Origin: Phyllobates terribilis
Taxonomy: Eukaryota
Length of the DNA stretch: 64,000 nucleotides
Direction of reading: 5' to 3'
Assembly (NCBI RefSeq): GCF_046119375.1
Contig: NW_027362764.1
Coordinates: forward strand, 802,466,001-802,530,000
In this document: piece by piece, positions 11,953-53,935 of the stretch
Layout of the letters: each line of letters starts with the position of its first letter
Numbering within the stretch: position 1 is the stretch's first letter
The notes under the pieces: generated by a model
What the model saw: only the letters and a program-made list of their open reading frames with translations
What the model was told of the DNA's origin: nothing
The model's database searches: none
Made by a program: the position numbers and the translations under genes

Positions 11953-12475
11953 GTAGGAGCCTAGTATATATCCTTATGTAGTAATGTCACGTTGTGTACG
12001 CTAATGTCAGTGTGTCAAGATCTCGGGAAGGGGATTATTCCATTGTTGGATGCCCTCCTCGCCTGGGACCCCCGCTCCTGTCACAGAGACGCCTCACAGC
12101 TTCTGAATCTGCTTTGTGTTTCACTTCTTTACCTTCTTATCTGTCACTGAATGGAAACCTTCTAAATACCCATTCCAATGCTGCGGTTTTGCAGCACACA
12201 CCTTTCTCGTTGAGATGGTTTGTTGCAGCGTGTCAGTGACACCTGGTTGAGATGAGCTGCGCCGCGGACGTCTGGAACCTGGCATGTATGGCCGTACCTA
12301 GTCCAGTTGTCAGGATCGGGCACCGGAAAGTGCTACGTCCACAGCGCTCCTCGCTGGAGGACCCCTTTAATCCACAATTTTGCTTTTAAAGGTGGACGGT
12401 ACGAAGGAGGCATTAATATTAGAGGAGGATCCGTTTCCTTCCCCTATCTATTACTCATCTTTACAATGGGGTCTG

Positions 12476-19241: not shown

Positions 19242-20800
19242 CAGTAGTGTTCAACAATACTAGCAGTCCACTATGACTGACCAGATTAATCCCTGTTTTT
19301 GGTATAAATTCTATCACCACATGTCAAACAATTTAACAGTTGGTGCAGTAGATTATAAGAAGACCCCCAGACTCCGCATTCATGATCTACAGGTTTCTGA
19401 GTCTGTGTATGTGAATAAATAATTGCACAGGGGGGTGTTCACAATAATAGCAGTGTGGAGATCAATCAGTGAGGTCAATCATTCTGTGAAGAAACGGGTG
19501 TGAATCAGGTGGCCCTTATTTAAGGGTGAAGCAGCACATGTTGTACATGCATTTCTCCTTGAAAGCCTGAGAAATATGGGTCGTTCCAGACATTATTCAG
19601 AAGAACAGCGTACTTTGATTAAACAGTTGATTGGAGAGGGTTAAACTTATAAAGAAGTGCAGAGAATGATCGGCTGATCAGCTAAAATGATCTCCAATGC
19701 TTCAAAATGGAAGAGAGATGTGGAAGAAAACGGGAGACTACCATTCAAATGGATGGAAGAATAGCCAGAATGGCAAAGGCTCAGCCAAGGATCAGCTCCA
19801 GGATGATCACAGACAGTCTCCAGTTACCTGTGAGGACTGTGACAGTTAGAAGACGCCTGTGTGAAGCTAATCTCTTAGCAAGTAGTCCCCGCAAAGTCCC
19901 ACTGTGAAAAAAAAAACAAACCAAAAAAAAAAACCATGTACCGAAGCGAATACAAATTGCCAAAGAACACATCAACTGGCCTAAAGAGAAATGGAGAAAC
20001 ATTTTGTGGACTGATGAAAGTAAAATTGTTCTTTTGGGGTCCAAGGGCCGCAGACAATTCGTCAGACGACCCCCAAACTCTGCATTCAAGCCACAGTACA
20101 CTCTGAAGACAGTGAAGCATGGTGGAAGCATCATGATATGGACATGTTTCTGTTACTATGGTGCTGGACCTATTTACCGCATACCAGGGATCATGGACCA
20201 GTTTGCATATATTAAAATACTTGAAGAGGTCATGTTGCCTTACGCTGCAGAGGATATGCCCTTGAAATGGGTGTTTCAGCAGGACAACGACCCTAAACAC
20301 ACCAGTAAACAAGCAACATCTTGGTTCCACTCCAACAAGATTGAGGTTATGGAGTGGCCGCCCAATCCCCTGAGCTTAAAACTTGTGGGGGGGACATCAA
20401 AAATGCCTTTTCTGAGGCAATGGCAAAAAATTGTGGGATGTAGTGAAGCCTCCTGGGCTGTAATAACAGCTGACAGGGGCCAGAAGTTGGTTGACTCGAT
20501 GCAACATAGATGTGAAGCGGTTCTAAAAAAAACTGTGGTTATAAAACTAAATATTAGGTTATTGATTCAGAGGAATGCTAAATCCTCAAAAAAGGCAAAT
20601 GCAGACACTGCTATTTTCTAGGACAGCCCAATGTTCATTTTTTATTTTCCGTAAAGTAGTTAAAATTATCTACATTTCTTCATGTTTTGAATTAGAAAAC
20701 AGCGAGCGACGTCCCCAATGCTGGAAATAAAAATCTAATAGAAAGATTTTGTGCTTAACTTATGTTTTTGAACACACTGCTATTATTTTGAACACTACTG
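19242..20800 (+). mobile_element. Tc1-family DNA transposon, full length (1559 bp), degenerate transposase
   Basis: TIRs CAGTAGTGTTCAA...TAGCAGT / ACTGCTATTATTTTGAACACTACTG followed by TA. Inner direct repeat at about 19435. Transposase from ATG 19576 with stops; WTDESK, FQQDNDPKH motifs; last catalytic motif destroyed. Confidence 0.92.
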
Positions 20801-28059: not shown

Positions 28060-29479
28060 TATGATCCTCAGTTACATCCTGTATTATACTCCAGAGCTGC
28101 ACTCACTATTCTGCTGGTGCAGTCACTGTGTACATACATTACATTACTGATCCTGAGTTACCTCCTGTATTATACTCCAGAGCTGCACTCACTATTCTGC
28201 TGGTGCAGTCACTGTGTACATACATTACATTACTGATCCCGAGTTACATCCTGTATTATACTCCAGAGCTGCACTCACTATTCTGCTGGTGCAGTCACTG
28301 TGTACATACATTACATTACTGATCCTGAGTTACCTCCTGTATTATACTCCAGAGCTGCACTCACTATTCTGCTGGTGCAGTCACTGTGTACATACATTAC
28401 ATTACTGATCCTGAGTTACATCCTGTATTATACTCCAGAGCTGCACTCACTATTCTGCAGGTGCAGTCACTGTGTACATACATTACTGATCCTGAGTTAC
28501 CTCCTGTATTATACTCCAGAGCTGCACTCACTATGCTGCTGGTGCAGTCACTGTGTACATACATTACATTACTGATCCTGAGTTACATCCTGTATTATAC
28601 TCCAGAGCTGCACTCACTATTCTGCAGGTGCAGTCACTGTGTACATACATTACATTACTGATCCTGAGTTACCTCCTGTATTATACTCCAGAGCTGCACT
28701 CACTATGCTGCTGGTGCAGTCACTGTGTACATACATTACATTACTGATCCTGAGTTACATCCTGTATTATACTCCAGAGCTGCACTCACTATTCTGCAGG
28801 TGCAGTCACTGTGTACATACATTACTGATCCTGAGTTACCTCCTGTATTATACTCCAGAGCTGCACTCACTATTCTGCTGGTGCAGTCACTGTGTACATA
28901 CATTACATTACTGATCCTGAGTTACATCCTGTATTATACTCCAGAGCTGCAGTCACTATTCTGCTGGAGCAGTCACTGTGTACATACATTACATTACTGA
29001 TCCTGAGTTACCTCCTGTATTATACTCCAGAGCTGCACTCACTATTCTGCTGGTGCAGTCACTGTGTACATACATTACATTACTGATCCAGAGTTACATC
29101 CTGTATTATACTCCAGAGCTGCACTCACTATTCTGCTGGTGCAGTCATTGTGTACATACATTACATTACTGATCCTGAGTTACATCCTGTATTATACCCC
29201 AGAGCTGCACTCACTATTCTGCTGGTGCTGTCACTGTGTACATACATTACATTACTGATCCTGAGCTACATCCTGTATTATACTCCAGAGCTGCACTCAC
29301 TATTCTGCTGGTGGAGTCACTGTCTACATACATTACTGATCCTGAGTTACATCCTGTATTATACTCCAGAGCTGCACTCACTATTCTGCTGGTGCAGTCA
29401 CTGTGTATATACATTACATTACTGATCCTGAGTTACATCCTGTATTATACTCCAGAGCTGCACTCACTATTCTGCTGGT
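28060..29479. repeat. 86-bp minisatellite, about 16 units (some 81 bp), in NAPRT intron 10
   Basis: Unit CTGATCCTGAGTTACATCCTGTATTATACTCCAGAGCTGCACTCACTATTCTGCTGGTGCAGTCACTGTGTACATACATTACATTA. Confidence 0.96.
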
Positions 29480-34217: not shown

Positions 34218-34620
34218 GGGGAGAGGTCAGGAGTGATCACCGGGCACCAGAGAGAGGGGAGAGGTCAGGAGTGATCACCGGGCACCAGAGAGGCGACCGG
34301 GGAGACGGCGACCGGGGAGACGGCGACCGGGGAGACGGCGACCGGGGAGACGGCGACCGGGGAGACGGCGACCGGGGAGACGGCGACCGGGGAGAGGTCA
34401 GGAGTGATCACCGGGCACCGGGGAGAGGTCAGGAGTGATCACCGGGCACCAGAGAGAGGGGAGACGGGGACCGGGGAGAGGTCAGGAGTGATCACCGGGC
34501 ACCAGAGAGAGGGGAGACGGGGACCGGGGAGAGGTCAGGAGTGATCACCGGGCACCAGAGAGAGGGGAGAGGGGAGACGGGACCGGGCACCGGGGAGAGG
34601 GGAGACAGGACCGGGTCAGG
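34218..34620. repeat. Compound tandem repeat filling most of NAPRT intron 1
   Basis: GGGGAGAGGTCAGGAGTGATCACCGGGCACCAGAGAGA units interleaved with a (GGGGAGACGGCGACC)n block. Confidence 0.9.
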
Positions 34621-34713
34621 TTGCTGTTGGGGGCAGCAGTAGCGGATCCTGGCGGGGACACCGGGCAGCACGGAGCTGACACCGGCAGACATTTCTCGGT
34701 CCCGGGTCCTCAC

Positions 34714-34906
34714 CTGCTCGGGAGAAGCGGAAGTCCCGCAGGAAGCGCAGAGTCTCCTCCAGGCCACAGAACAGGGTGAAGCCGCCACTGAACGGAGCGT
34801 CCCGGAAGAAGAGCTCGAACTCCGCCGCCTCCCGGTGCCGCCCGCTCCGCCAGTAGCCGTACGCCATGGTGAACTGGTAGAGGTCGGTGAGCAGCGGGAG
34901 CTCCAT
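34714..34906 (-). CDS. NAPRT: NAPRT exon 1, nicotinate phosphoribosyltransferase ([19 protein letters not shown]...)
   Basis: LLTDLYQ-TM signature; donor CAG|GTGAGG. The 13 exons sum to 1629 nt = 542 aa plus stop. Confidence 0.96.
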
Positions 34907-34944
34907 GCCGCCTGAGCCCCGCACCGAACTGCCAATGACGGCCG

Positions 34945-35001
34945 TTATATACCCCGGAAGTCCCGCACCTGCCGCCCGGGGCATGCTGGGAAGTGTAGTT
35001 C
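34945..35001 (-). promoter_or_regulatory. NAPRT core promoter: TATA-like, ETS and ZNF143/THAP11-type motifs
   Basis: Minus-strand TATATAA (34951-34945), CCGGAAGT (34954), and minus-strand GAACTACACTTCCCAGCATGC (35001-34981). Confidence 0.65.
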
Positions 35002-35285
35002 TGTTCGCTTACTTATGTGACAGCTGAGAGGCGCGCGCCAGACTGCGCTGCGGGGTCTCCTACACGCCTCACACGGGTTGTGGAGAGACTGGTGATCCCG
35101 TCAGTGAGGTGCAGACACATAGGCTGACATTGTGGACGATCCGCCACGGCCCTGACAGAAAATAGGGAAAGAGAAGTCTGTGTTCAGGTGTTTTACCGAA
35201 AGAAAAAAACCGATTTCAATAAATTGCACTGTGACTTGTCAGGGGTCTTTGGAGGCAATTTTTGTGTATAAATCTATTCCCCTTC

Positions 35286-36499
35286 TGACGCGCCCCCTGG
35301 GCCGTGTTTGTGTGGGGATACCCGGGAACCGGACCTTTTGTAGATGCTGGGGGTTGTAGTCTCCGTGGCGGCGACCCAGTCCGTGCCCAGGGCGGTCAAA
35401 CCAAATGTCAGTCTATATGCTGAATGTCCGACTACGCCACCTGTGGATTGCGGTCAGAGTGAACCGCCGCTGCAGGGCAGACCGCTGAGGCTGGTGATGT
35501 GGGTGCAGGAGGGGATAGGATAACTCCCCACGGGAGGAGTATAGCCTCAGGGCAGCGAGTGCGGATGTTGGGGGTGATGGTGCGCGGGAGCAGCAGTAAC
35601 GACACAGAGTCCTGTAATGCAGTCCAGGGTATTTACTCACAGTTCTTTATCCACGTTACTCCAGCTGGTCATAACGTCCCTCGTCGCACTGTGCTCACCA
35701 GGTGAGGGGCTCGGCCAACTCCCAGATAACTTTGGAGCGTTTCACAGGACCCCCCCTTTGTGTGTCCTTCCTCTGGCCTGTCATACCCCGCCAGTGACCT
35801 CGCTTCTGTCCGGCTGCCTCGGACCTTCTCGGGTAAACGTTGGCCTCCGTTTCCCTGACCCTATGTGGTGCCTTCCTAGCGGGTATAGCGAGGGTCTGCG
35901 CCACATAAAATGTCACAGCCTCCAGTTTCTAGCTGAGGGTCGTTCCCCGCCTCCACTAGTTTCGGGGACCGGTCTCCCCCTTTGGCCTGACCCCCCTACG
36001 CAGGTAGATTCGGGCGTGCGGTGGCGACTCGCCGGTCCATACCCCTGGGGTCCCTTCGTTCCTTGTTCCTGGAGCCTCCTCCGCTCCTCTTCCGTCCTTC
36101 TCCTTCCTCCAGGCTCCGGCCGCTCTCTCAGGCCTGCCTGCGGAGCAGAGCCCCTTGCAGAGGCCCTTACTCTATCACTTCTTCTCTCTGACTGAACACA
36201 GAACTAAGATGGTGCCCACCTTTTATACCTCCTTCTCAGTGCACCCAGGAACTGCCCTCTCCCTCCTATGCACTACAGGGTCCCCCTTCCTCGGTGTTCC
36301 CTCCCCCCTCTCCAGCCTGGGACAGGGACTGTCACGCTCTGCTTGGAGCATATCGGTCGCCCTGCCCCCCGGAAATGTGGTGTAATGCATGCAGGTGTCG
36401 GGGTCCTGATCCACACTCCATCCTTACCTGGAAGTGAGATATCGCACATCTGGTGGAGATGCAATACCTCTGTAGCGACCGAACCCTCGGGGCGCTGCA
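35286..36499 (-). repeat. 3' LTR
   Basis: TG...GGGGCGCTGCA termini; direct repeat of 44456-45669; minus-strand TATAAAA at 36227-36221. Confidence 0.92.
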
Positions 36500-36508
36500 T
36501 TCCCCCCT
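36500..36508 (-). other. Polypurine tract of the LTR element
   Basis: Minus-strand AGGGGGGAA abutting the 3' LTR. Confidence 0.7.
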
Positions 36509-37675
36509 GGTAAATCACAGCACGTCCGCGGGCTGGAACAGAGCAAAAGACAATGCAAATTAGGACATGCAAAATTGTATTTTTTTTTTCAAAACTTTTC
36601 ACACCATAAAACTGCCAACTGCACACAACTTCCCTTTATGGGAAACATTTTCTCTTTTCACCAACATATAAAACATTCTTTTCTCTTTCCCCATGACGGC
36701 ACCACGGAGAGAGGGGATCCGCCCTTCAAGGACAGGAAACCTACAGATAAAAAGGGCGGCACCTCTCTCCCGCATCAGTTGGTTTCCTGTCCTTGACAGG
36801 GACCTACGGATGGAAGTTCCTGAAAAGGAATGAAGAAAATGAGAACTTACCAGGCCCGGCCAGACCGGTTCAGGCAGCGTGGGTTCCCTGCCTTGGCTGG
36901 TGCGGTGTCCTGTAGCACCACCGCTGGGGTCAGCGGGCCTCTAGGGTGGCAGGGAGACGCGACACAGCAAAGATCTGGATCGCCGCGGTCTTCGGTGGCG
37001 TCGAGGCCCAGGTGGTGAGTATGGCGGGGCTTCCGGGGCTCGGGTTAGTGAGTTGGCCTGAGCCCCGGGTCGGAGGCTTGCCTGGGCTTCGCGCGCCGGA
37101 AGTGACGCGGGGCGAGTGATGCGGGGCGCGCGCCGGTAGTGACGCGGACGCGGGTCCCTCTGGGAGCGGCGCGTTCAAATGCGCGCGGGAAACTGCCCAC
37201 ACGGGGGGGGGTCGCTCCCCTCGCTAATGGCACACAGCGGTGGCCTAGCGGGAGGGGGGGGCACACCTGATAGCCGCAGGTGCCAGGCCAGAAGGGGGGG
37301 CGGACCCCTGTAGAGTTTAAATGGCCAGGGAAGCACAGGGGAAGTGCTTCCTGGCATTCTCTGGCACTCTGCAGCTGTGAGCGAGCAGGAGCCCCAGGAG
37401 GTGCAGTCCCTGCACCCCCACTCACCATCGCCTCAGAGGAAGCGTATGAAAGGATCCTCCAGCGGCCCTTCACGGCAAGGTGACGGAGGAAGCGGGCGTT
37501 CTGGCAGGTCTTCACAACGTGGCAAAGACTCCAGCGCGGCGTCAGCCTCGATGAAGGACCCAGCTACTGGAACGGGTTCCTCTTCAAATCCGGTATTCCC
37601 TCTTACTACGGGTCGGTAAGTGATCTTCGTGAAAGCTCACTTGTAACTTAAGACCCCCCTCTCTTTTCCTCTCAG

Positions 37676-38910
37676 GGAAGGAAGAGTACGGGCAAGTCCA
37701 AGTACAGGGCCTGCGCGCTTTGCGCAGCGGATCTGCCCACTGCATGGCAAAAGAGACTGTGCAACTCATGCATCGAGCAAACTATCTGTGAGGAGACCCC
37801 TAAGTTTGCCTCCGAACTCAGATCCCTGATTAAATCTCAGGTGGAGGACACCTTTAAGTCCCTGCAGAAGGGGGAGAAAAAACAAGGGAAAACTAGACAC
37901 CTATCCCCGGTGCCGGAGTCCAGTGGTTCAGACGAGGAGGGAGTAGTCTCCGATTCATCGTCTTCGTCGTCTTCAGGGGACGGGGGTCGTAGCTGTTTCC
38001 CTATAGATGGAACAGATACCTTGATTAAGGCGGTTAGGTCTACTATGGGGTTCGTGGATCCTCACCCTAAAAAGTCTATCCAGGACATAATGTTTAGTGG
38101 CCTAGGACAGAAGAAAAAGAGATCCTTCCCTCTTAATGATCAAGTACAATCTCTGATTAAGAGGGAATGGAGAAAACCAGAGAGGAAAGGGTTGTTGTCA
38201 CCGAAAAGGAAATACCCCTTTGAGGACCCTGTGTGCTCCTTCTTGGGGAAGGCGCCTAAAATTGACGTCGCGATAGCCAAGGCCTCTAGAAAGTTTTCCC
38301 TGCCATTTGAGGACATGGGGGTGCTTAAAGACCCTATGGATAAGAAAGCTGACTCCTTTTTGAAAGGAGCTTGGGAGGCGGCAGGAGGGGGGGGTTAAAA
38401 CCCGCGGTGGCAGCCACATGCACGGCCAGATCTTTGATGGTCTGGCTAGACCAACTAGAAGCGCAGTTGAAGGATAAAGCCTCAAGGGATGATATAATAG
38501 ACTCCATCCCAGTGATGAAGGGCGCAGCGGCTTTTCTGGCTGACGCCTCAGCCGACTCTGTCAGGCTGGCAGCTAGGGCTGGGAGTTTTTCAAACGCAGC
38601 TAGGCGGGCCCTCTGGCTCAAATGCTGGCCAGGTGACCTCCAAACGAAGTCTAGGCTGTGCTCCATCCTGTGTGAGGAAGAATTCTTATTCGGGTCTACT
38701 CTGGATGATATCCTGGACAAGGCCGGGGATAACAAAAAACGCTTCCCGGTCCTCTCTGGTACTTCTTTTAGGAAATCTTTTCGGAGTAGGAAATTCATGC
38801 GAAGGAGACCCCCCAAAGACCAGGACAGGTGGGAGGACAGGAGGCAGAGAAAAGCCAAGGGGTTTATGTTTAACAGGCCCCCTAGTGACAATAGGAAACC
38901 CGCCCAATGA
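37676..38910 (+). pseudogene. DIRS ORF1 (gag-like; CxxC...CxxC finger and LAP2alpha-like region), frameshifted
   Basis: RACALC...LCNSC in frame with ORF 37841-38398; frameshift at the G8 run 38387-38394 into LKPAVAATC...WLKCWPGD. Confidence 0.8.
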
Positions 38911-40972
38911 AAGGCAGCCCCAGGTGGGGGGGAGGCTTCTCCATTTCCTCCCGGCCTGGGAAAAAATATCAAACGTGCGCTGGATTTTAGACCTGATAAA
39001 ATCGGGGCTAAGATTCCAGTTCCTCTCCACTCCCCGTCCAAATTTCAAAGTAACCCCCGTGAGGTCTTCAGGGGTGGAGCAGTTGGCTCTAGAACAAGAG
39101 GTTCTAGGCCTAGTGGACAAGGCAGTCCTTCGGGAAGTCCCAGCTCAGGAGGTAGGCGATGGGTTCTACTCCCCTCTATTCCTCAGGAAGAAACTGGATG
39201 GAACATTCAGGACTATTGTAAATCTAAAGAAATTGAACAGGGTTCTGAAAGTTCATTCGTTCAAGATGGAGTCAATAAAAACATCTGTGAAATTGTTGTT
39301 CTCAGGCTGTTTTATGGCTGTCCTGGATCTGAAGGACGCATATTATCATGTCCCCATACACAGAGACTACCAAAAATTCCTGAGGGTAGCGATACCGATA
39401 AGGGGCACAATAAGGCACTACCAATATACGGCTCTCCCCTTCGGGTTAGCAATAGCCCCAAGAGTCTTCACAAAGGTGGTGGCAGAGGTTATTGCCCATC
39501 TGAGGGAGAGGAACATCCTAATAGTCCCGTACCTGGACGATCTACTTATTATAGGCAACTCGTTCAGCCATTGCAAGGACCATCTAGCAAAAGTCATGGG
39601 TTCCTTGACGAGTTTAGGCTGGCTTCTGAATCTGAAAAAATCCAGGCTGGAACCAGATCAAGTGCAAGAGTACTTGGGTATCCTGTTAGATTCAAGGAGT
39701 CAGGAATGCCGTCTCCCGGCAGAAAAAATCCAAAGCATGATGGCCCGAGTGTCCTACTTGAAGAACCATCCCGATATGACACTGAGGGGAGCAATGTCCC
39801 TCCTAGGCTCCATGACTGCCTGCATCCCGGGGGTCCGCTGGGCTCAGTTGCACACCAGCGGCTTACAATGGGAGATCTTGGGGGCGGAAAGGTCACTAAG
39901 AGGGCACTTAGAAGGTCGGCTGACCTTATGATCAAAAACTTTGCTTTCCCTGACATGGTGGACAGAGGGGGACAATCTAGGCAGAGGCGTCCCATGGACA
40001 ATACCAGTATTATTATTATTATTTATTATTATAGCGCCATTTATTCCATGGCGCTTTACATGTGAAAAAGGGGTATAATACAAGAACAATTACAATAATC
40101 TTGGATACAATGTGACAGCGACTGGTACAGGAGGAGCGAGGACCCTGCCCGCGAGGGCTCACAATCTACGAGTATCTCAGATACTAACGACGGATGCAAG
40201 CCCCAGGGGGTGGGGGGCTCATCTAAACGACCAAGTGGCTCAGGGGGTCTGGTCGAAGGATTTGGAAGGGGTATCCTCCAACATGAAGGAACTTCTGGCG
40301 GTGAAGTATGGCCTCTTAGAATTTCTAGACACGCTAAGAGGGCACCACGTGAGAGTGTTTTCGGATAACAGGGTAGTGGTGGCATACCTAAATCACCAGG
40401 GGGGTACCCGGTCCCATTCTCTTCTACGGGTGTCAAGTTCCATCCTCTGGGTAGCAGAGAACAATCTAGCGTCTCTATCGGCACTCCACATAAAAGGGAC
40501 AGAGAATGTCACGGCAGATTTCCTGAGCAGGACCCAGCTGAGACAGGGCAAGTGGGAGCTGAACCAGCTAGTGTTCGACAAAATCACGAGGGTTTGGGGG
40601 CACCCCTCCATAGACCTATTCGCCAACTGGCAAAACAAAAAAGTGGACACGTTCTGCTCGTTCGACCCCAGGGGGAACCCAGCGGCGCTAGATGCCTTCT
40701 CGATCCCATGGAACCACCAGCTAGCGTATGCCTTTCCTCCGATTACTCTCATTCCGGCAGTTCTGAGGAAGATCAGGAAAGACGAGGCAAACATGATCCT
40801 CATCGCCCCCTTCTGGCCAAGGAGGCCTTGGTTTTCCTGGCTAAGGATAATGTCCACCTCCGACCCCTGGGTCCTTCCGGAAGTTCCGGATCTGCTGTCC
40901 CAGGGACCAGTTCTTCACCCACAGGTAGCAAACCTGCACCTGACAGCTTGGAGTTTGAGAGGGCGCTCTTGA
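38909..40972 (+). pseudogene. DIRS ORF2: RT, RNase H and adenine-methyltransferase-like domain, disrupted
   Basis: VGGRL, LDLKDAY, LPFGL and YLDD motifs; TDAS and DFLSR; IDLFA and YAFPP. In-frame TGA at 39929 and an L2 insertion at 40011. Confidence 0.92.
40011..40170 (-). mobile_element. L2-type LINE/SINE 3'-end fragment inserted in DIRS ORF2
   Basis: Minus-strand TAGATTGTGAGCCCTCGCGGGCAGGG...GGCGCTAT(AAT)n; flanked by AGTAT duplications (40006-40010, 40171-40175); removing it restores GVPWTIPVSQILTTDAS. Confidence 0.85.
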
Positions 40973-41982
40973 GGGATAGAGGGTTCTCCCCCAATTTAAT
41001 CTCCACCTTACTGCAGAGTAGGAAACCCGTAACTACCAAACTCTACGGTAAAACCTGGAGAAGATTTCTTTCTTTCACAGGGTCGGAAGTAGTGGGGGAG
41101 TCCCCCATTACTGCTATCTTGGAGTTTCTTCAAAAGGGGTTGGAGCAGGGGTTGGCCACAAGCACTCTGAAGGTTCAGGTGGCGGAGCTGGGAGCCCTAT
41201 ATAACTGCGACCTGGCTAGGGATAGATGGGTCTCCAGGTTCATCAGGGCATCCCATAGGTCCACGCCCATCCCCTCCCGGAATGCTCTTCCTTGGGACTT
41301 AAATCTTGTGCTTTCGGCTCTGACCAGGTGTCCCTTTGAACCTCTAGCGGATGCGTCTCTTAAAATACTGTCCCTTAAGACGTCCCTTCTAGTAGCCCTC
41401 ACATCGGCACGTCGGATTAGTGACATGCAAGCCTTATCAGCAGGGCCCCCCTTTACGCAAATCCTAGAAGATAGGGTGACACTTAGGACTGACCCAGCGT
41501 ACCTTCCTAAGGTGGGATCCCTCTTCCACAGGTCACAGGAGGTCACCCTCCCTTCCTTTTGCTCAGACCCAAAAAACAAGGGGGAAGAGGCCCTTCACAC
41601 CTTAGACGTCAGGAGGTGCATTATACAATACTTAGAGGCCACACGAGAGTGTAGGAAGGATAGGTCTCTCTTTGTGTGCTTCCAGGGATCTCGGAAGGGA
41701 CGGAAGGCTTCCAAGAGCACCCTGGCAAGGTGGATAAGGGACGCCATCTCCCTGGCTTACTCCTCAAGCGGGGAAACCGTGCCTGCGGGCCTAAAGGCTC
41801 ACTCGACTAGGGCAGTGGCAGCCTCCTGGGCGGAGAAGGCTGGGGCTTCTATCGAACAGATATGTAGAGCGGCGACCTGGTCTTCTCCTTCCACGTTCTT
41901 TAAACACTACCGGCTAGATCTAACCTCGTCTTCAGACCTTACCTTTGGCAGAAGGGTTCTGGAAGCGGTGGTCCCTCCCTAA
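40552..41982 (+). CDS. DIRS ORF3 tyrosine recombinase, open frame (true start probably later; 5' part overlaps ORF2)
   Basis: SARRISD (R), HSTR (H-x-x-R), ATWSS (W) and KHY (Y) catalytic residues all present. Confidence 0.9.
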   Translation: MGAEPASVRQNHEGLGAPLHRPIRQLAKQKSGHVLLVRPQGEPSGARCLLDPMEPPASVCLSSDYSHSGSSEEDQERRGKHDPHRPLLAKEALVFLAKDNVHLRPLGPSGSSGSAVPGTSSSPTGSKPAPDSLEFERALLRDRGFSPNLISTLLQSRKPVTTKLYGKTWRRFLSFTGSEVVGESPITAILEFLQKGLEQGLATSTLKVQVAELGALYNCDLARDRWVSRFIRASHRSTPIPSRNALPWDLNLVLSALTRCPFEPLADASLKILSLKTSLLVALTSARRISDMQALSAGPPFTQILEDRVTLRTDPAYLPKVGSLFHRSQEVTLPSFCSDPKNKGEEALHTLDVRRCIIQYLEATRECRKDRSLFVCFQGSRKGRKASKSTLARWIRDAISLAYSSSGETVPAGLKAHSTRAVAASWAEKAGASIEQICRAATWSSPSTFFKHYRLDLTSSSDLTFGRRVLEAVVPP

Positions 41983-42000
41983 TCTACACTTCTCTGCAAA

Positions 42001-42083
42001 TCTCTCCGTGGTGCCGTCATGGGGACAGAGAAAGACGTAGTTACTTACCGGTAACGGGATTTCTCGGAACCCGTGACGGCACC
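42001..42083 (+). other. DIRS internal complementary region (ICR)
   Basis: Complement of the left ITR start joined through AAA to the complement of the right ITR extension. Confidence 0.88.
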
Positions 42084-42821
42084 CGTACATTCCCTCCCTT
42101 CACACATGGGTCCGCACATTTGTTTGTTGCCTTTGTATAGTCACAGGGTGTGTCTGGCAAGCTCCTTTTTCAAAAAAGCTCTGTAAACCAACTGATGCGG
42201 GAGAGAGGTGCCGCCCTTTTTATCTGTAGGTTTCCTGTCCTTGAAGGGCGGATCCCATCTCTCCATGGTGCCGTCATGGGTTCCGAGAAATCCCGTTACC
42301 GGTCAGTAACTACGTTTTTAGTAGAAAACATATAAAACATCATCAGCAGCATATCAACGGCGAAGTCTCTTGTCAACAGGTCACAGTTCTTTCTGCGACC
42401 AGATGTCCATTCTTCTTAAGGTGCAAACTTGGCAAACTTTTGAACACGAGGGACCCGTTCATAAACCCTCAACGTAGGCCCTGGGCGTGGCTGCAGGGCA
42501 TAGGTGATCCGGCCGTTGGACCACGTCTTCCGCCACGCCAAACGGGTTTTTGTTCTGAGGTCTGTTGTTACAATGTTTATAAAACCAATAGAGGGCACTT
42601 TAGGAAGTGCAACTATTTACATGGATTGGCTGCTCCCAGTCCTCAGCCGGATAGTTCACAGAGGGTTGGCTGCTCCCAGTCCTCAGCCGGATATTACTGA
42701 CCCATTTCCGGGTAACTTTTAGCAAAACAACAGGTAACAGTCCCCAGCCGGGGTGAACTTTTATCAAACTTTTTCTTCTCTTACCCTGACGGGTAACTAT
42801 GTACAGTCAGGCTGTCGCTCA

Positions 42822-44092
42822 TTAGTAGCGATGTCCCCCTTGTGGACGCTCCTCCTCCTCGCCGTACTCTTCAGACCCGTCCGGGTCCTCTGGGTAGTAG
42901 GGTTCAGGGTAGTGTTCTTCCTCTACCCGCTGGACATTGAGGGTGTACCACCCCCGCAGGCCTCGATGTCGGGTGTAGGACACCAAGTCCCCCGGAAACA
43001 GATCGTGTCTCCGGTGACCCTCGGGCAGGTGGCTCTCCACATCCCTCCGGGTAACAAACATGTCAGTGTCTGTGGTGGGGTCCCGGATGAACCCCCACCC
43101 CTTCTCCTGATGGAATTTAACCACGGTCCCGGTAATTTTGGGACCGCGTGCAGCTTGGGGGTTTCGGCGGGTCCGCATTTTCCCCTCCGCGCTCCGGGCC
43201 TGCAGCTGCTCCCTCTTCTGGCGCCGCGTCTCCTCCTCCTTCTCCAGCTGCGCCACCTCCCGGCGACAGAATTCTCGCCTGCGGGCTGCGGCCGCCCGCG
43301 TCTCCTGCAAGAACCCCGTCAGGTCTTCCCCGGTCTGGTCCCACTCAACCTGGACCTCCTCATCTGGGAGCTGGAGGACGGTCGTTGGCTGGGAATCTGG
43401 AGGGAGCGGAGGAAGTGGGGCTAGGGCCTCCGCAGACAGATCCCTCCATTGGCAGGGGTGGACCCATCCGGGCAGCAGGGGGACCGGCTCTCCCTCAGGA
43501 CCGGTAAGCTGGGCGTATAAGTCCGTGCCCAGGGGTGGTAGTATTGGGAGCGGGGGCGCTCTTGGGTGGAAAGCGCCCGGGGGTATCAGGCTTTGCGACC
43601 TGGCTTGGGGCGGGCCGCTCCCGGTTGCACCCGGGGTCAGGGGGCTGTGCTCGCGGCTTGGGGCCTGGGTGCCGGCAGTGGGAGCGGGGGAGGCGCAGCG
43701 ACTCCCGGGACGTCTGGCTCCACGACGGGGTCCAGAGGCAGGTCTGTAGCATCAGGGCTGGTGGCAGGGGTGTCCCCCTTACCTGCTTCCAGGGCTGCGC
43801 TGCTCTCGGCTTCCGGCCTCCGCTCCTCGTCCTCAGGGGCTGGCTCGCTGTCCGGTGCTGGCGGCGTCACTTGCTGCCGGATCGCGACCCACCGGGCCAT
43901 CTCTTTTCTCCATCCCGCTATGGCCTCCCGCTGCGCCTGGACCATCCTCCGGTCCAGATCCTCCAGTGCAGTCCGAAGGGACTCCGGGTCTTCTCCAGGG
44001 AGCTGAGCCATCAGCTCCGTGAGGCTGTACGGGACCACCTCGGCCTGCAGCAGGCCACCCGTCAGGGTGCTGGAGTTGGTGCTGCTCGCCAT
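42822..44092 (-). pseudogene. LTR-element internal ORF, about 423 aa if one frameshift is repaired: helical N-terminus, Pro-rich linker, coiled coil, cold-shock domain (42924-43139), acidic tail
   Basis: KITGTVVKFHQEKGWGFI...DMFVT...LFPGDLVSYT...G.RG...LNV matches the CSD pattern (RNP1 and RNP2). The CSD frame is stop-free up to about 43780 and overlaps the upstream ORF (ATG 44092, stop 43637) in the -1 frame. Confidence 0.82.
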
Positions 44093-44435
44093 CTCTGGGT
44101 GTGGTCTACCGAGACTGATCCAAACCACACCCTGCCCCCCGGTTTTCTTCTCCTTCCGCCCCTGTTGGGGGTGGTCCCGGGGCAACCTGCTGACAATCAC
44201 TCTCAGGGGCAGCCCCCCCCACGTTGATGGACATCTCTACAGCCGCACTCAAGGCTGTTGGGGGTGGGCTCCTTCTTTGGCGCCATTCTGGGACCTGGCC
44301 CACGATGGGAGGTGGCTTCTTGTTGTCTTTTGGCGCGCACATAATGGCGTCCGTTCTGCTGGGGCGGGCACCACATTCAATACAGTAAAACAGTCTCTTT
44401 TCAGGCACGCAGTACCCGGTGATTGCGGACACGAA

Positions 44436-44453
44436 ATCCTGCCGTCTACGCCA
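44436..44453 (-). other. Primer-binding site complementary to the tRNA-Ser 3' end
   Basis: Minus-strand TGGCGTAGACGGCAGGAT versus the tRNA-Ser(AGA/TGA) complement TGGCGTAGTCGGCAGGAT (recalled sequence), 17/18 match, 2 nt from the LTR. Confidence 0.82.
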
Positions 44454-44455
44454 AA

Positions 44456-45669
44456 AGTAGCCGCGCCCCCTGGGCCGTGTGTGTGTGGGGATACCCGGAA
44501 CTGGACCTTTTGTGGATGCTGGGGGTTGTAGTCCTTGCGTGGCGGCTACCCGGTCCGTGCCCAGGGCGGTCAAACCAAATGGCAGTCTATATGCTGAATG
44601 TACGACTACGCCACCCGTGGATTGCGGTCAGAGTAAACCGCCGCTACAGGGCAGACCGCTGAGGCTGGTGTTGTGGGTGCAGCAGAGGGTAGTATAACTC
44701 CCCACGGGAGGAGTATAGCCTCAGGGCAGCGAGTGCGGATGTTGGGGGTGATGGTGCGCGGGAGCAGCAGTAACGACACAGAGTCCTGTAATGCTGTCCA
44801 GGGTATTTACTCACAGTTCTTTATCCATGTTACTCCAGCTGGTCATAACGTCCCACGTCGCACTGTGCTCACCAGGTGAGGGGCTCGGCCTACTCCCAGA
44901 TAACTTTGGAGCGTTTCACAGGACCCCCCTTTGTGTGTCCTTCCTCTGGCCTGTCATACACCGCCAGTGACCTCGCTTCTGTCCGGCTGCCTCGGGCCTT
45001 CTCGGGTAAACGTTGTTGCCGTTTCCCTGACCCTATGTGGTGCCTTCCTAGCGGGTGTAGCGAGGGTCTGCGCCACATAAAATGTCACAGCCTCCGGTTT
45101 CTAGCTGAGGGTCGTTCCCTGCCTCCAGTAGTTTCGGGGACCGGTCTCCCCCTTTGGCCTGACCCCCTACGCAGGTAGATTCGGGCGTGCGGTGGCAACT
45201 CGTCGGTCCGCACCCCTGGGGTCCCTTCGTTCCTTGTTCCTGGAGCCTCCTCCGCTCCTCTTCCTTCCTTCTCCTTCCTCCAGGCTCCGGCCGCTCTCCC
45301 AGACCTGCCTGCGGAGCAGAGCCCATGCAGAGGCCCTTACTCTATCACTTCTTCTCTCTGACTGAACACAGAACTTAGATGGTGCCCACCTTTTATACCT
45401 CCTTCTCAGTGCACCCAGGAACTGCCCTCTCCCTCCTATGCACTACAGGGTCCCCCTTCCTCGGTGTTCCCTCCCCCCTCTCCAGCCTGGGACAGGGACT
45501 GTCACGCTCTGCTTGGAGCATATCGGTCGCCCTGCCCCCCGGAAATGTGGTGTAATGCATGCAGGTGTCGGGGTCCTGATCCACACTCCATCCTTACCTG
45601 GAAGTGAGATATCGCACATCTGGTTGAGATGCAATACCTCTGTAGCGACCGAACCCTCGGGGCGCTATA
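44456..45669 (-). repeat. 5' LTR
   Basis: Direct repeat of 35286-36499 with scattered substitutions; both terminal dinucleotides appear mutated. Confidence 0.92.
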
Positions 45670-45689
45670 CTTCCACTGTCTGTACATAC

Positions 45690-48164: not shown

Positions 48165-51100
48165 GGTGGGACAGCGGAGCTGGGTCTGCTGGTTGACCAT
48201 TGGGAGCAGGATGGGACAGCGGAGCTGGGTATGCTGCTTGACCATTGGGAGCAGGATGGGACAGCGGAGCTGGGTATGCTGTCTGACCCATGAGAGAAGG
48301 ATGGAACAGCGGAGCTGGGTATGCTGTATGACCATTGGGAGCAGGGTGGGACAGCAGAGCTGGGTATGCTGTATGACCATTGAGAGCAGGGTGGGACAGC
48401 GGAGCTGGGTGTGCTGTATGACCATTGAGAGCAGGGTGGGACAGCGAAGCTGGGTGTGCTGTATGACCATTGAGAGCAGGGTGGGACAGCGGAGCTGGGT
48501 ATGCTGTCTGACACTTGGGAGCAGGGTGGGACAGCGGAGCTGGGTATGCTGTATGACCCTTGAGAGCAGGGTGGGACAGCGGAGCTGGGTATGCTGTATG
48601 ACCATTGGGAGCAGGGTGGGACAGCGGAGCTGGGTATGCTGTATGACCATTGGGAGCAGGGTGGGACAGCGGAGCTGGGTATGCTGTATGACCATTGGGA
48701 GCAGGATGGAACAGCGGAGCTGGGTATGCTGTATGACCCTTGGGAGCAGGATGGAACAGTGGAGCTGGGTATGCTGTATGACCCAGGGAGCAGGGTGGGA
48801 CAGCGGAGCTGGGTGTGCTGTATGATGATTGGGAGCAGGGTGGGACAGCGGAGGTGGGTGTGCTGTATGACCCTTGGGAGCAGGGTGAGACAGCGGAGCT
48901 GGGTATGCTGTATGACCCAGGGAGCAGGGTGGGACAGCGGAGCTGGATGTGCTGTATGACCATTGGGAGCAGGGTGGGACAGCGGAGCTGGGTATGCTGT
49001 ATGACCCAGGGAACAGGGTGGGACAGCGGAGCTGGGTGTGCTGTATGACCATTGGGAGCAGGGTGGGACAGCGGAGCTGGGTATGCTGTATGACCCAGGG
49101 AACAGGGTGGGACAGCGGAGCTGGGTATGCTGTATGACCATTGGGAGCAGGATGGAACAGCGGAGCTGGGTATGCTGTATGACCCTTGGGAGCAGGATGG
49201 AACAGTGGAGCTGGGTATGCTGTATGACCCAGGGAGCAGGGTGGGACAGCGGAGCTGGGTGTGCTGTATGATGATTGGGAGCAGGGTGGGACAGCGGAGG
49301 TGGGTGTGCTGTATGACCCTTGGGAGCAGGGTGAGACAGCGGAGCTGGGTATGCTGTATGACCCAGGGAGCAGGGTGGGACAGCGGAGCTGGATGTGCTG
49401 TATGACCATTGGGAGCAGGGTGGGACAGCGGAGCTGGGTATGCTGTATGACCCAGGGAACAGGGTGGGACAGCGGAGCTGGGTGTGCTGTATGACCATTG
49501 GGAGCAGGGTGGGACAGCGGAGCTGGGTATGCTGTATGACCCAGGGAACAGGGTGGGACAGCGGAGCTGGGTGTGCTGTATGACCATTGGGAGCAGGGTG
49601 GGACAGCGGAGCTGGGTATGCTGTATGACCCTTGGTAGCAGGGTGGGACAGTGGGGCTGGGTATGCTGTATGACCATTGGGAGCAGGGTGGGACAGTGGA
49701 GCTGGGTATGCTGTATGACCCTTGGGAGCAGGGTGGGACAGCGGAGCTGGGTATGCTGGATGACCATTGGGAGCAGGGTGGGACAGCGGAGCTGGGTATG
49801 CTGGATGACCATTGGGAGCAGGGTGGGACAGCGGAGCTGGGTATGCTGTATGACCCTTGGGAGCAGGGTGGGACAGCGGAGCTGGGTATGCTGTATGACC
49901 CTTGGGAGCAGGGTGGGACAGCGGAGCTGGGTATGCTGTATGACGCTTGGGAGCAGGGTGGGACAGGGGAGCTGGGTATGCTGGATGAGCATTTGGAGCA
50001 GGATGAGACAACGGAGCTGGGTATGCTGGTTGACCATTGGGAGCAGGGTGGGACAGCGGAGCTTGGTATGCTGTATGACCCTTGGGAGCAGGGTGGGACA
50101 GCGGAGCTGGGTATGCTGTATGACCCTTGGGAGGAGGGTGGGACAGCGGAGCTGGGTATGCTGTATGACCCTTGGGAGCAGGGTGGGACAGCGGAGCTGG
50201 GTATGCTGGATGACCATTGGGAGCAGGGTGGGACAGCGGAGCTGGGTATGCTGTATGACCCAGGGAGCAGGGTGGGACAGCGGAGCTGGGTATGCTGTAT
50301 GACCCAGGGAGCAGGGTTGAACAGTGGAGCTGGGTATGCTGTATGACCATTGGGAGCAGGATGGGACAGCGGAGCTGGGTATGCTGTATGACCCAGGGAG
50401 CAGGGTGGGACAGCGGAGCTGGGTATGCTGCATGACCCTTGGGAGCAGGGTGGGACAGCAGAGCTGGGTATGCTGGATGACCATTGGGAGCAGGGTGGGA
50501 CAGCGGAGCTGGGTATGCTGTATGACCCAGGGAGCAGGGAGGGACAGCGGAGCTGGGTATGCTGTATGACCCAGGGAGCAGGGTGGGACAGTGGAGCTGG
50601 GTATGCTGTATGACCATTGGGAGCAGGATGGGACAGCGGAGCTGGGTATGCTGTATGACCCAGGGAGCAGGGTGGGACAGCGGAGCTGGGTATGCTGTAT
50701 GACCCTTGGGAGCAGGGTGGGACAGCAGAGCTGGGTATGCTGGATGACCATTGGGAGCAGGGTGGGACAGTGGAGCTGGGTATGCTGTATCACCATTGGG
50801 AGCAGGGTGGGACAGCGGAGCTGGGTATGCTGTATGACCCTTGTGAGCAGGGTGGGACAGCGGAGCTGGGTATGCTGTATGACGCTTGGGAGCAGGGTGG
50901 GACAGCGGAGCTGGGTATGCTGGATGACCATTGGGAGCAGGGTGGGACAGCGGAGCTGGGTATGCTGTATGACCCTTGGGAGCAGGGTGGGACAGCGGAG
51001 CTGGGTATGCTGGATGACCATTTGGAGCAGGATGGGACAGCGGAGCTGGGTATGCTGGTTGACCATTGGGAGCAGGGTGGGACAGCGGAGCTTGGTATGC

Positions 51101-53935
51101 TGTATGACCCTTGGGAGCAGGGTGGGACAGCGGAGCTGGGTATGCTGTATGACCCTTGGGAGCAGGGTGGGACAGCGGAGCTGGGTATGCTGTATGACCC
51201 TTGGGAGCAGGGTGGGACAGCGGAGCTGGGTATGCTGGATGACCATTGGGAGCAGGGTGCGACAGCGGAGCTGGGTATGCTGTATGACCCAGGGAGCAGG
51301 GTGGGACAGCGGAGCTGGGTATGCTGTATGACCCAGGGAGCAGGGTTGAACAGTGGAGCTGGGTATGCTGTATGACCATTGGGAGCAGGATGGGACAGCG
51401 GAGCTGGGTATGCTGTATGACCCTTGGGAACAGGGTGGGACAGCGGAGCTGGGTATGCTGTATGACCCAGGGAGCAGGGTGGGACAGCGGAGCTGGGTAT
51501 GCTGTATGACCATTGGGAGCAGGATGGGACAGCGGAGCTGGGTATGCTGTATGACCATTGGGAGCAGGATGGGACAGCGGAGCTGGGTATGCTGTATGAC
51601 CCTTGGGAGCAGGGTGGGACAGTGGAGCTGGGTATGCTGTATGACCCAGGGAGCAGGGTGGGACAGTGGAGCTGGGTATGCTGTATGACCCAGGGAGCAG
51701 GGTGGGACAGCGGAGCTGGGTATGCTGTATGATCCAGGGAGCAGGGTGGGACAGCGGAGCTGGGTATGCTGTATGACCATTGGGAGCAGGGTGGGACAGT
51801 GGAGCTGGGTATGCTGTATGACCATTGGGAGCAGGGTGGGACAGCGGAGCTGGGTATGCTGTATGACCATTGGGTGCAGGGTGGGACAGCGGAGCTGGGT
51901 ATGCTGTATGACCATTGGGAGCAGGGTGGGACAGTGGAGCTGGGTATGCTGTATGACCATTGGGAGCAGGGTGGGACAGCGGAGCTGGGTATGCTGTATG
52001 GCCATTGGGAGCAGGGTGGGACAGTGGAGCTGGGTATGCTGTATGACCCTTGGGAGCAGGGTGGGACAGCGGAGCTGGGTATGCTGTATGACCATTGGGA
52101 GCAGGGTGGGACAGTGGAGCTGGGTATGCTGTGTGACCCTTGGGAGCAGGGTGGGACAGCGGAGCTGGGTATGCTGTATGACCATTGGGAGCAGGGTGGG
52201 ACAGTGGAGCTGGGTATGCTGTATGACCCTTGGGAGCAGGGTGGGACAGTGGAGCTGGGTATGCTGTATGACCATTGGGAGCAGGGTGGGACAGTGGAGC
52301 TGGGTATGCTGTATGACCCTTGGGAGCAGGGTGGGACAGCGGAGCTGGGTATGCTGTATGACCATTGAGAGAAGGGTGGGACAGCGGAGCTGAGTATGCT
52401 GTATGACCCTTGGGAGCAGGGTGGGACAGCGGAGCTGGATATGCTGTATGACCCTTGGGAGCAGGGTGGGACAGCGGAGCTGGGTATGCTGTATGACCCA
52501 GGGAGCAGGGTGGGACAGCGGAGCTGGGTATGCTGTATGACCATTGGGAGCAGGATGGGACAGCGGAGCTGGGTATGCTGTATGACCATTGGGAGCAGGA
52601 TGGGACAGCGGAGCTGGGTATGCTGTATGACCCTTGGGAGCAGGGTGGGACAGTGGAGCTGGGTATGCTGTATGACCCAGGGAGCAGGGTGGGACAGTGG
52701 AGCTGGGTATGCTGTATGACCCAGGGAGCAGGGTGGGACAGTGGAGCTGGGTATGCTGTATGACCATTGGGAGCAGGGTGGGACAGCGGAGCTGGGTATG
52801 CTGTATGACCATTGGGAGCAGGGTGGGACAGTGGAGCTGGGTATGCTGTATGACCCAGGGAGTAGGGTGGGACAGCGGAGCTGGGTATGCTGTATGACCA
52901 TTGGGAGCAGGGTGGGACAGTGGAGCTGGGTATGCTGTATGACCATTGGGAGCAGGGTGGGACAGCGGAGCTGGGTATGCTGTATGACCATTGGGAGCAG
53001 GGTGGGACAGCGGAGCTGGGTAAGCTGTATGACCATTGGGAGCAGGGTGGGACAGTGGAGCTGGGTATGCTGTATGACCATTGAGAGCAGGGTGGGACAG
53101 CGGAGCTGGGTATGCTGTATGACCCTTGGGAGCAGGGTGGGACAGTGGAGCTGGGTATGCTGTATGACCCTTGGAAGCAGGGTGGGACAGTGGAGCTGGG
53201 TATGCTGTATGACCATTGGGAGCAGGGTGGGACAGTGGAGCTGGGTATGCTGTATGACCCTTGGGAGCAGGGTGGGACAGCGGAGCTGGGTATGCTGTAT
53301 GACCATTGGGAGCAGGGTGGGACAGTGGAGCTGGGTATGCTGTATGACCCTTGGGAGCAGGGTGGGACAGTGGAGCTGGGTATGCTGTATGACCCTTGGG
53401 AGCAGGGTGGGACAGCGGAGCTGGGTATGCTGTATGACCCTTGGGAGCAGGGTGGGACAGTGGAGCTGGGTATGCTGTATGACCCTTGGGAGCAGGGTGG
53501 GACAGCGGAGCTGGGTATGCTGTATGACCCTTGGGAGCAGGGTGGGACAGCGGAGCAGGGTATGCTGTATGACCATTGGGAGCAGGGTGGGACAGTGGAG
53601 CTGGGTATGCTGTATGACCCTTGGGAGCAGGGTGGGACAGCGGAGCTGGGTATGCTGTATGACCCTTGGGAGCAGGGTGGGACAGCGGAGCAGGGTATGC
53701 TGTATGACCATTGGGAGCAGGGTGGGACAGCGGAGCTGGGTATGCTGTATGACCCTTGGGAGCAGGGTGGGACAGCGGAGCTGGGTATGCTGTATGACCC
53801 TTGGGAGCAGGGTGGGACAGCGGAGCAGGGTATGCTGTATGACCATTGGGAGCAGGGTGGGACAGCGGAGCAGGGTGTGCTGTATGACCCTTGGGAGCAG
53901 GGTGGGACAGCGGAGCTGAGTATGCTGGATGACAA
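48165..53935. repeat. 45/44-bp minisatellite, about 128 units
   Basis: Unit GGGAGCAGGGTGGGACAGCGGAGCTGGGTATGCTGTATGACC(CTT/ATT/CA). Confidence 0.97.

Follow-up and report, generated by a model that had tools for sequence, protein, structure and literature searches.

A 64,000-nucleotide stretch of the genome of the poison frog Phyllobates terribilis (contig NW_027362764.1, positions 802,466,001 to 802,530,000; hereafter the window) contains, at positions 35286-45669 on the minus strand, a long terminal repeat (LTR) retrotransposon whose single gene encodes a protein ending in a cold-shock domain (CSD). The family to which it belongs is real, very large and recently active; it is made of non-autonomous LTR retrotransposons that are, by sequence, not of the Gag-only type, and its gene is not a Y-box gene proper. 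An initial annotation of the window, made from the letters alone, had proposed such a non-autonomous family with a CSD in its only gene, and this has stood up: the element is not a single copy (more than 25,000 motif matches) and its gene is under purifying selection. On balance, we favour reading it as a satellite, that is non-autonomous, retrotransposon of an active Ty3/Gypsy element, endowed with an RNA-binding accessory protein that would favour its own RNA. More tentatively, with chances that we put a little below even, it may represent a class of satellites devoid of any retroelement protein, capsid included, which would use one remodelled host Y-box domain on their own RNA to out-compete their Gypsy helper and which, with tens of thousands of young copies, would have persisted across poison-frog lineages.

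A very large and young family of elements

In the 10.6 Gb host genome assembly, a 20-letter pattern of the RNP1 codons has 25,046 matches against 11 for the reversed control, a count to be read with the provisos that the assembly may contain duplicated haplotypes and that diverged families escape the pattern. Twelve subfamily-A loci, selected for long frames, each possess a single open reading frame (ORF) of ~510 codons with the CSD at its end; 9 of the 12 have an LTR on both sides within the stretch, and LTR divergence is 1.9-4.6% at the seven loci measured. A less biased sample comprised 20 of the first 42 motif sites listed on contig 1, an intact RNP1 being required, so that intact copies are favoured. 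Nineteen of these copies are framed by an LTR pair of their own, the remaining one being ambiguous; 17 have a readable 4-bp target-site duplication (TSD), 18 have LTRs at least 98.5% identical and 18 keep an open frame of at least 553 aa, the copies being 73-97% identical to the nearest reference. Between the LTRs, gag or pol matches were found in none of the 20, pol matches occurring in seven cases in the flanks only.

Subfamilies A to E have a common protein layout, A to D being mutually 42-54% identical. Family F (L131-L133, L136, L137, L139, and L140) is a second young pol-less family with the same tRNA-Ser primer-binding site (PBS) and with LTRs of 1.03 kb that are 98.4-99.6% identical in L132, L133, L136, L139, and L140. 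It has only the CSD and the PBS in common with A-E; its LTR is unrelated, and its protein combines an Arg-rich N-terminus with a much more diverged CSD. L114-L116 form a short derivative family in which a Met directly ahead of the CSD opens a CSD-only ORF (the internal region measures 1.4 kb in L116) and in which the PBS of L114 and L116 has switched to tRNA-Ser(CGA). L191 and L193 are subfamily-B copies without the pre-CSD helix and the CSD; their breakpoints differ and their frames of ~488 aa are open.

Old diverged CSD relics, with no LTR pair in the stretch fetched, were also seen (L119-L122 at C4:791.48-791.52 Mb, L134, L135, L138, L141, and L142). Three are clustered in one orientation, two retain a His equivalent to H87 of YB-1, and all are candidates for early lineages or domestication. 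Tandem LTR-internal-LTR-internal arrays with a period of 3.4-3.6 kb occur at L035, C3:355.46-355.47 Mb, and C4:51.30-51.31 Mb, and in L174, L175, L178, L179, L182, L184, L185, and L188 the PBS is prolonged by tRNA-Ser sequence well past 18 nt, as though reverse transcription had continued into the primer tRNA. A genome-wide search with PF00313 returned as top loci CSDE1-like retrocopies or exons and one decayed Y-box-like copy (L073-L080 and L093); nearly all the remaining loci examined were CSD satellite elements.

The nearest named proteins are labelled as poison-frog, and close relatives with a single CSD turned up nowhere but in poison frogs, in three word-index searches as well as in a full HMMER search. 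As gene calling is commonly preceded by repeat masking, the absence of relatives elsewhere is weak evidence. A tree of 32 domains groups A-E with proteins that carry the labels Ranitomeya and Anomaloglossus (100/100). Relatives are thus seen in three genera of poison frogs, the Ranitomeya and Anomaloglossus proteins perhaps also belonging to LTR elements, and the CSD lineage probably predates the divergence of those frog groups, or has moved between them. Three public frog gene models (P0154, P0004, and P0155) join element-derived parts to other genes: a CSD to an R3H-domain protein, the element ORF to a DDE/plant-transposase-type domain, and a piece to a MIF4G protein. They are either real chimeric transcripts or annotation errors. 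The protein atlas had nothing usable for the whole protein, and for the C-terminal part it offered bacterial CSD clusters of a generic kind only, scoring below 0.9. The stretch is absent from the runs recorded as RNA. Contigs of four runs from one study, whose RNA status is guessed and for which strand and level are not given, cover it, one of them (1,254 nt, with 181 differing letters) across 43184-44398; none was used as evidence.

A single protein under purifying selection

The protein is composed of two helices, a Pro/Ala-rich linker, the CSD, and a short acidic tail, with basic stretches resembling nuclear localization signals (NLS) towards the N-terminus. Modelled with AlphaFold on 12 natural copies, the chain is mostly disordered (pLDDT 46) apart from two helices, 119-156 and 357-401, and a beta barrel spanning ~410-480; the C-terminal part alone is modelled at pLDDT 82 as a 45-residue helix and a five-stranded oligonucleotide-binding (OB) fold. 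The top fold matches of this C-terminal model are cold-shock domains (Z 10.4 to CRHSP-24 and 10.1 to CspB), and a viral fold library yielded only generic CSDs. PF00313 scores reach 29.1-39.8 bits in A and B copies and fall below the cut-off of 27 in the D (19.2) and F (22.8) examples.

A Gag origin of the ORF was considered and rejected: Pfam yields the CSD only, the Foldseek matches listed are all CSDs, and comparison with the Gag and Pol of the candidate helper described below gave E>0.2 with hmmsearch and a probability of 0.2% with hhalign. As to a capsid fold, the low-confidence full-length model (pLDDT 46) displays the two long helices and the CSD.

Selection was estimated as dN/dS by the Nei-Gojobori method on 16 open copies, whose pairs are not independent and whose dS between subfamilies is near saturation. 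For the CSD, dN/dS is 0.13 within A and 0.15 between subfamilies (CI 0.09-0.24); for the pre-CSD helix it is 0.21 and 0.15, and for the first helix 0.23 and 0.32, respectively. Among 18 young copies of the less biased sample, the values are 0.11 for the CSD (CI 0.05-0.19) and 0.10 for the pre-CSD helix. The Pro-rich linker is at 0.52-0.57 and the first 83 codons at 0.56-0.68, with low dS. When the CSD stretch of all 20 sampled copies is read in four other frames, the values are 1.8-2.6, and in the mirrored antisense frame 0.20; the third-position excess holds outside CpG too. Purifying selection on the protein is strong in many parallel lineages, and its direction is clear.

The start of the protein may lie at the first Met, at a second Met (44092 in the window), or upstream of the PBS, since the ORF frame runs back through the latter (window 44342-44453). 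The distance from PBS to RNP1 is 1,506-1,869 nt and a multiple of three in 18 of the 19 sampled copies with a PBS; in 18/19 the first 450 nt are stop-free in the ORF frame, with 1-8 stops in other frames, and 10 sampled copies have an in-frame AUG 8 codons ahead of the PBS. Among stored loci, 66 of 76 are in phase (some copies being counted twice), as is family F; the exceptions are subfamily D, with stops in this region, and a few A copies that are out of phase.

Anatomy of the window copy

The features of the window copy are as follows, in the order of the element:

45670-45673: target-site duplication CTTC, 5' side (sequence read)
44459-45669, minus strand: 5' LTR, 1.21 kb (LTR alignment)
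45397, minus strand: TATAAA, in the 5' LTR
44811, minus strand: AGTAAA, possible polyadenylation signal, in the 5' LTR
44602-44613, minus strand: second PBS-like copy, 11-12 nt, inside U5 (sequence comparison)
44390-44458, minus strand: PBS and first ~50 nt of the leader (90-94% identity to 5/5 helper copies)
44436-44453, minus strand: PBS, tRNA-Ser(AGA/TGA) (comparison with the genome's tRNA genes)
42822-44342, minus strand: single gene; in open copies of subfamily A, ~510 codons counted from the first Met (open copies)
43890-44035, minus strand: conserved N-proximal helix (dN/dS 0.23-0.32)
43140-43361, minus strand: W-D...G-F motif and 45-residue helix just ahead of the CSD (dN/dS 0.10-0.21)
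42927-43133, minus strand: CSD, Y-box-like, five-stranded OB fold, then acidic tail (PF00313; dN/dS 0.11-0.15)
42320-42821, minus strand: 3' untranslated region (UTR), part upstream of the DIRS insertion (comparison with other copies)
~36680-42319, plus strand: nested DIRS retrotransposon (Pfam matches, terminal inverted repeats)
36500-36679, minus strand: end of the 3' UTR and polypurine tract (PPT; 36500-36508, same as the helper's)
35286-36499, minus strand: 3' LTR (LTR alignment)
35282-35285: target-site duplication CTTC, 3' side (sequence read)

The cis signals listed by the initial annotation are all present: the two LTRs align, CTTC flanks them on both sides, the PBS is a near-match to tRNA-Ser, and the PPT AGGGGGGAA directly adjoins the 3' LTR. 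The LTR alignment contains 1,168 matches, 40 mismatches, and 11 gap columns, so that 40 of 1,208 sites (3.3%) differ. This corresponds to a K80 distance of 0.034 and, at 2.5e-9, a rate used for a poison frog (PMC11152451) and borrowed here, to roughly 7 million years. LTR tips of the form TG...CA are a family feature, mutated at the 5' LTR of the window copy. Compared with the complement of the 3' ends of tRNA-Ser(AGA/TGA) genes of the same genome, the window PBS carries one internal change; ARAGORN found no tRNA in the first 4 loci and in 8 of 12 later ones, most of which are element PBS sites. The PBS-like copy inside U5, located 150-180 nt upstream of the real PBS, has a matching site in the 3' LTR, is kept in subfamilies A-D and in the helper, and is possibly a second site for the tRNA or a tRNA fragment.

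The window CSD is recognized by PF00313 (E 9e-7, 29.1 bits for a cut-off of 27), with RNP1 KGWGFI and RNP2 MFVT legible, as the initial annotation had read them. Its statement that protease, reverse transcriptase (RT), integrase, and CCHC knuckle are lacking also agrees with our results: Pfam matched none of these, nor a capsid, in the two element frames scanned in the window copy, in line with the gag/pol result of the 20-copy sample. That there is just one sense ORF is right for the family and wrong for this copy, where comparison with open copies (3/3) reveals indels near 44,220 and 43,650 that break the frame and leave the N-terminal part and the CSD part in different frames; the window copy therefore probably yields no full-length protein. 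Likewise, the gene occupies the gag position as described, and its product has no Gag homology.

The nested element was correctly identified as a DIRS, having a LAP2alpha-like gag (E 3e-6), RT (E 4e-22), RNase H (E 6e-6), a weak tyrosine recombinase (E 0.04), and terminal inverted repeats; once it is removed, ~2.3 kb of internal sequence is left, as had been estimated. It is a later insertion, foreign to the CSD family: it is missing from the other copies examined, one of which shows the empty site. An AT-rich-tailed insert, seen by eye at ~40005-40170, lies between its RT and RNase H frames, and the DIRS is otherwise also broken.

Origin of the CSD and its binding face

A broad profile, built with family F, the relics, and proteins of other frogs, matches YBX1/YBX2 at 59.9 bits without gaps over 75 positions, compared with at best 40.5 bits for bacterial Csp, 21.8 for CARHSP1, 20.7 for LIN28B, and 20.2 for CSDE1. 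Single-sequence and Foldseek searches also rank Y-box first, narrowly, and the loop F85-G106 has 21-22 residues versus 21 in YBX1. A structural search over representatives placed CRHSP-24 and CspB at the top, with no Y-box entry listed, and a genome search for host Y-box exons that used the Y-box-like relic as query returned solely the relic itself.

In YB-1, the aromatic RNA contacts are W65, F74, F85, and H87 (PMC7498358). Our residue survey parsed 98 of 101 stretches (3 remained unparsed), including 81 domains of A-E, all of which keep the Phe equivalent to F74 and F85. Satellite CSDs have acquired basic residues (arginines) following RNP2 and, on strand 5, a W-Y pair that is nearly invariant. 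The loss of W65 and H87 and the gain of the W-Y pair, both derived, are common to family F and A-E, which suggests a single old capture. That the CSD was taken once from a host Y-box gene is, in our judgement, quite probable.

A Ty3/Gypsy candidate helper

A pattern search with the LTR ends and the PBS retrieved five loci (L048-L052), all of them autonomous Ty3/Gypsy elements. They encode a PNMA-like Gag (E 1.6e-4, under the cut-off), a CCHC knuckle, and protease-RT-RNase H-integrase; the family of their Gag and the order of their domains mark them as Gypsy-like. Identity is 98.1-99.9% within their LTR pairs and 99% or more in 150 of 150 gag matches scored, which indicates that the helper family has been recently active. 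Window element and helper are 74-81% identical over the last ~290 nt of the LTR (U5-like) and 90-94% identical over 61-73 nt covering the PBS and first leader bases (5/5 helper copies), a region that is likely a priming or packaging signal. They also share PPT and LTR tips, and a 4-bp TSD was found in the three helper copies read. No match was detected by BLAST in the rest of the LTR (U3), nor in the internal region, and the helper has no CSD. The satellite-type LTR/PBS junction has 48,819 matches in the genome versus 0 for the control, and four of six inspected CSD-less loci with exactly this junction proved to be helper copies, which speaks for the link.

The dependence on a helper Gypsy, suggested by the initial annotation, thereby gains a concrete candidate with shared cis signals; the anatomy of the satellite is that expected of a non-autonomous partner, which this helper would very probably mobilise. 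Stable RNA structure in U5 and leader was sought in 6 elements (z-scores from -1.6 to +1.2, none notable), and a complex prediction of helper capsid with the helix and CSD part scored 0.01, neither for nor against an interaction. For family F, 3 of 10 loci (L146, L147, and L150) share another leader, two of them with a Gag-like frame; only 25 nt are common to F, and we claim no link.

Proposed mechanism and alternatives

The satellite would be transcribed from its own, helper-unrelated U3. Bearing helper-type U5, PBS, and PPT, its RNA would be packaged by helper Gag and then reverse-transcribed and integrated by helper Pol, a part of the scheme that we hold to be very probable. The CSD protein would bind single-stranded RNA, probably as an oligomer formed via the long helix, and work mainly on the RNA that encoded it, stabilising or unwinding it or holding it in a Y-box-like particle until pick-up by helper Gag; the outcome would be a larger satellite share of helper particles. 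This role of the protein is plausible and, we think, slightly favoured. Action on its own RNA is suggested because many parallel young lineages keep the frame intact, which a purely shared product would not enforce, and we count the CSD-only derivative (L114-L116) on the same side. Precedents exist in YB-1, which is reported to stabilise the RNA of HIV and MLV, to support the production of MMTV (PMC6040738) and, by means of its CSD, to unwind RNA (PMC8464072).

The most probable of the alternatives, though unlikely, is a trans-acting counter-defence or transcription factor that helps all copies and the helper, either by mimicking or titrating host Y-box proteins (oocyte mRNA masking), by blocking small-RNA silencing, or by activating the LTR promoter via single-stranded DNA. 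Such a factor could well have the Y-box-like layout seen here (Pro/Ala-rich region, CSD, charged tail; for YB-1 see PMC6040738), together with the remodelled binding face and the N-terminal basic NLS-like stretches; CSD-less copies exist, and Gypsy RNA is abundant in poison-frog ova (PMC6278860). A purely trans-acting gene should nevertheless decay among more than 25,000 copies, since copies that contribute nothing would profit just as much, yet the frame is open and under selection in 18 of 20 young copies of divergent lineages.

Less probable is a nucleocapsid-like chaperone, co-packaged in the helper particle and aiding tRNA annealing or strand transfer on the long R-U5. CSDs do unwind nucleic acids (PMC8464072), the ORF comes right after the PBS, and the second PBS-like site in U5 may need remodelling; but the helper, whose Gag has its own CCHC knuckle, copies the same U5 and PBS without a CSD, and the satellite protein is without capsid or Gag homology. 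The idea of the initial annotation that the CSD replaces nucleocapsid is unsupported for the same reasons: no capsid is detectable in the protein, which cannot be recognised as a Gag, and a zinc knuckle is already present in the helper.

We give still less credence to an OB fold that has lost nucleic-acid binding and turned into a protein-interaction module, for example diverting or restraining helper Gag. The loss of W65 and H87, the gain of the strand-5 W-Y pair, and flanking helices constrained as much as the CSD would be in keeping with it, against which the RNP1 and RNP2 phenylalanines and the neighbouring arginines are kept. Finally, a functionless hitch-hiking host fragment, to which the frameshifted window copy and the CSD-less copies might point, is extremely improbable and already contradicted by the selection data, dN/dS being 0.11-0.15 and frame-specific with near-saturated synonymous sites between subfamilies, and by the retention of the CSD in family F, where hardly any similarity is left in the LTRs and in the rest of the protein.

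Several observations weigh against the preferred reading, a satellite whose RNA-binding protein favours its own RNA. W65 is replaced by K in 75 of 81 domains and H87 by N or T in 78 of 81, so that, with the predicted binding face altered, affinity may be low or the target different. The CSD motif lies 0.9-2.3 kb downstream in only 39 of the first 100 junction matches. Six CSD-less loci of the remainder were fetched and inspected: four are helper copies and two are satellites that lost the CSD (L191 and L193), which implies that the CSD may not be needed in cis for every insertion. The 20-copy sample, picked by intact RNP1, favours intact copies. As for the origin of the domain, a narrow A-D profile puts CspA (32.1) over YBX1 (28.4) by ~4 bits, and host Y-box sequences were left out of the 32-domain tree; since broad and narrow profiles and the structural search disagree, a Y-box origin is likely, not proven.

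Genomic surroundings and significance

The 3' LTR of the window copy ends 377 bp upstream of the start codon of NAPRT, on the same strand (PF17767 E 2.5e-15; window 34616-35286), beside a CpG-rich first exon, and could drive or disturb this gene. Other features of the window lie at 433-2109, 2818-7433, 10844-11953, 12479-15013, 19908-20618, 28062-29479, and 48165-53933; among them are a TIGD-type gene (DDE_1, HTH_Tnp_Tc5), long minisatellites of 52, 65, 86, and 45 bp, and what we take to be an EEF1D-like exon and a Tc1-like piece.

As a rule, non-autonomous LTR elements are regarded as non-coding or Gag-only. A selected, non-Gag, host-derived RNA-binding protein would imply that a step of the retrotransposon cycle (keeping the RNA stable, storing it, or passing it on to Gag) can be won by an accessory factor of the parasite, and the family offers measured selection together with thousands of natural variants. 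At ~4.7-5 kb each, 25,000 copies would amount, if most are full length, to ~120 Mb or ~1% of the assembly, a visible share of poison-frog genome growth, and the family leaks into host gene models (P0154) and promoters (NAPRT).

Comparison with known systems

TRIM and LARD elements are non-coding, with LTRs, PBS, and PPT and no pol; the satellite differs from them by keeping a selected gene of 500-600 codons. Its candidate helper (L048-L052) resembles it in U5, PBS, first leader bases, PPT, LTR tips, and 4-bp TSD, and is unlike it in possessing PNMA-like Gag, CCHC, and full Pol, in lacking a CSD, and in its unrelated U3 and internal region. With YBX1/YBX2, the satellite CSD shares the gapless broad-profile alignment, the loop length, a Pro/Ala-rich region before it, and a charged region after it, whereas identity is ~30%, W65 and H87 are lost, and the tail is short and acidic instead of having alternating basic/acidic repeats. 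Y-box proteins are not known to have the two long helices of the satellite protein.

Single-ORF, pol-less LTR elements are known in zebrafish (BHIKHARI-1 and -2; PMC12067270) and Xenopus (1A11 and Xretpos; PMC4585706). Like the satellite, they have LTRs around one long ORF, no pol, and dependence on a partner, and BHIKHARI has been recently active. By contrast, BHIKHARI is related to lokiretroviruses and its product is a Gag containing a capsid domain, and 1A11 is Gag-like, whereas the satellite ORF has no detectable capsid and a host-type CSD, its partner candidate is Ty3/Gypsy, and its copies number tens of thousands versus tens to hundreds for these elements. Among papers on frog repeats, the main texts of PMC6278860 and PMC12822217 have no matches to 'cold' or 'Y-box'; PMC11152451 reports many unclassified LTR elements and has one match to 'cold'.

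The initial annotation knew of no vertebrate LTR family with a CSD as cargo. This does not hold in general, as 46 bird endogenous retroviruses (ERVs) carry a captured CSD (pfam00313), acquired in several independent events (He et al. 2025, PMC12287698); it holds in the narrower sense that the literature searched (subscription papers, Repbase, and Dfam lying outside its scope) describes no pol-less, CSD-only LTR family. The bird elements resemble the satellite in that LTR-bounded retroelements have captured a CSD. They are retroviral (ERV-A/B and ERV-G), classed by RT, and variable in CSD position, whereas the satellite is without pol and Gypsy-associated, and its CSD protein is the sole gene, under measured purifying selection; the accessible text of PMC12287698 contains neither a selection test nor a CSD-only satellite. 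Taken together, the bird ERVs and the poison-frog satellites point to repeated CSD capture by LTR elements.

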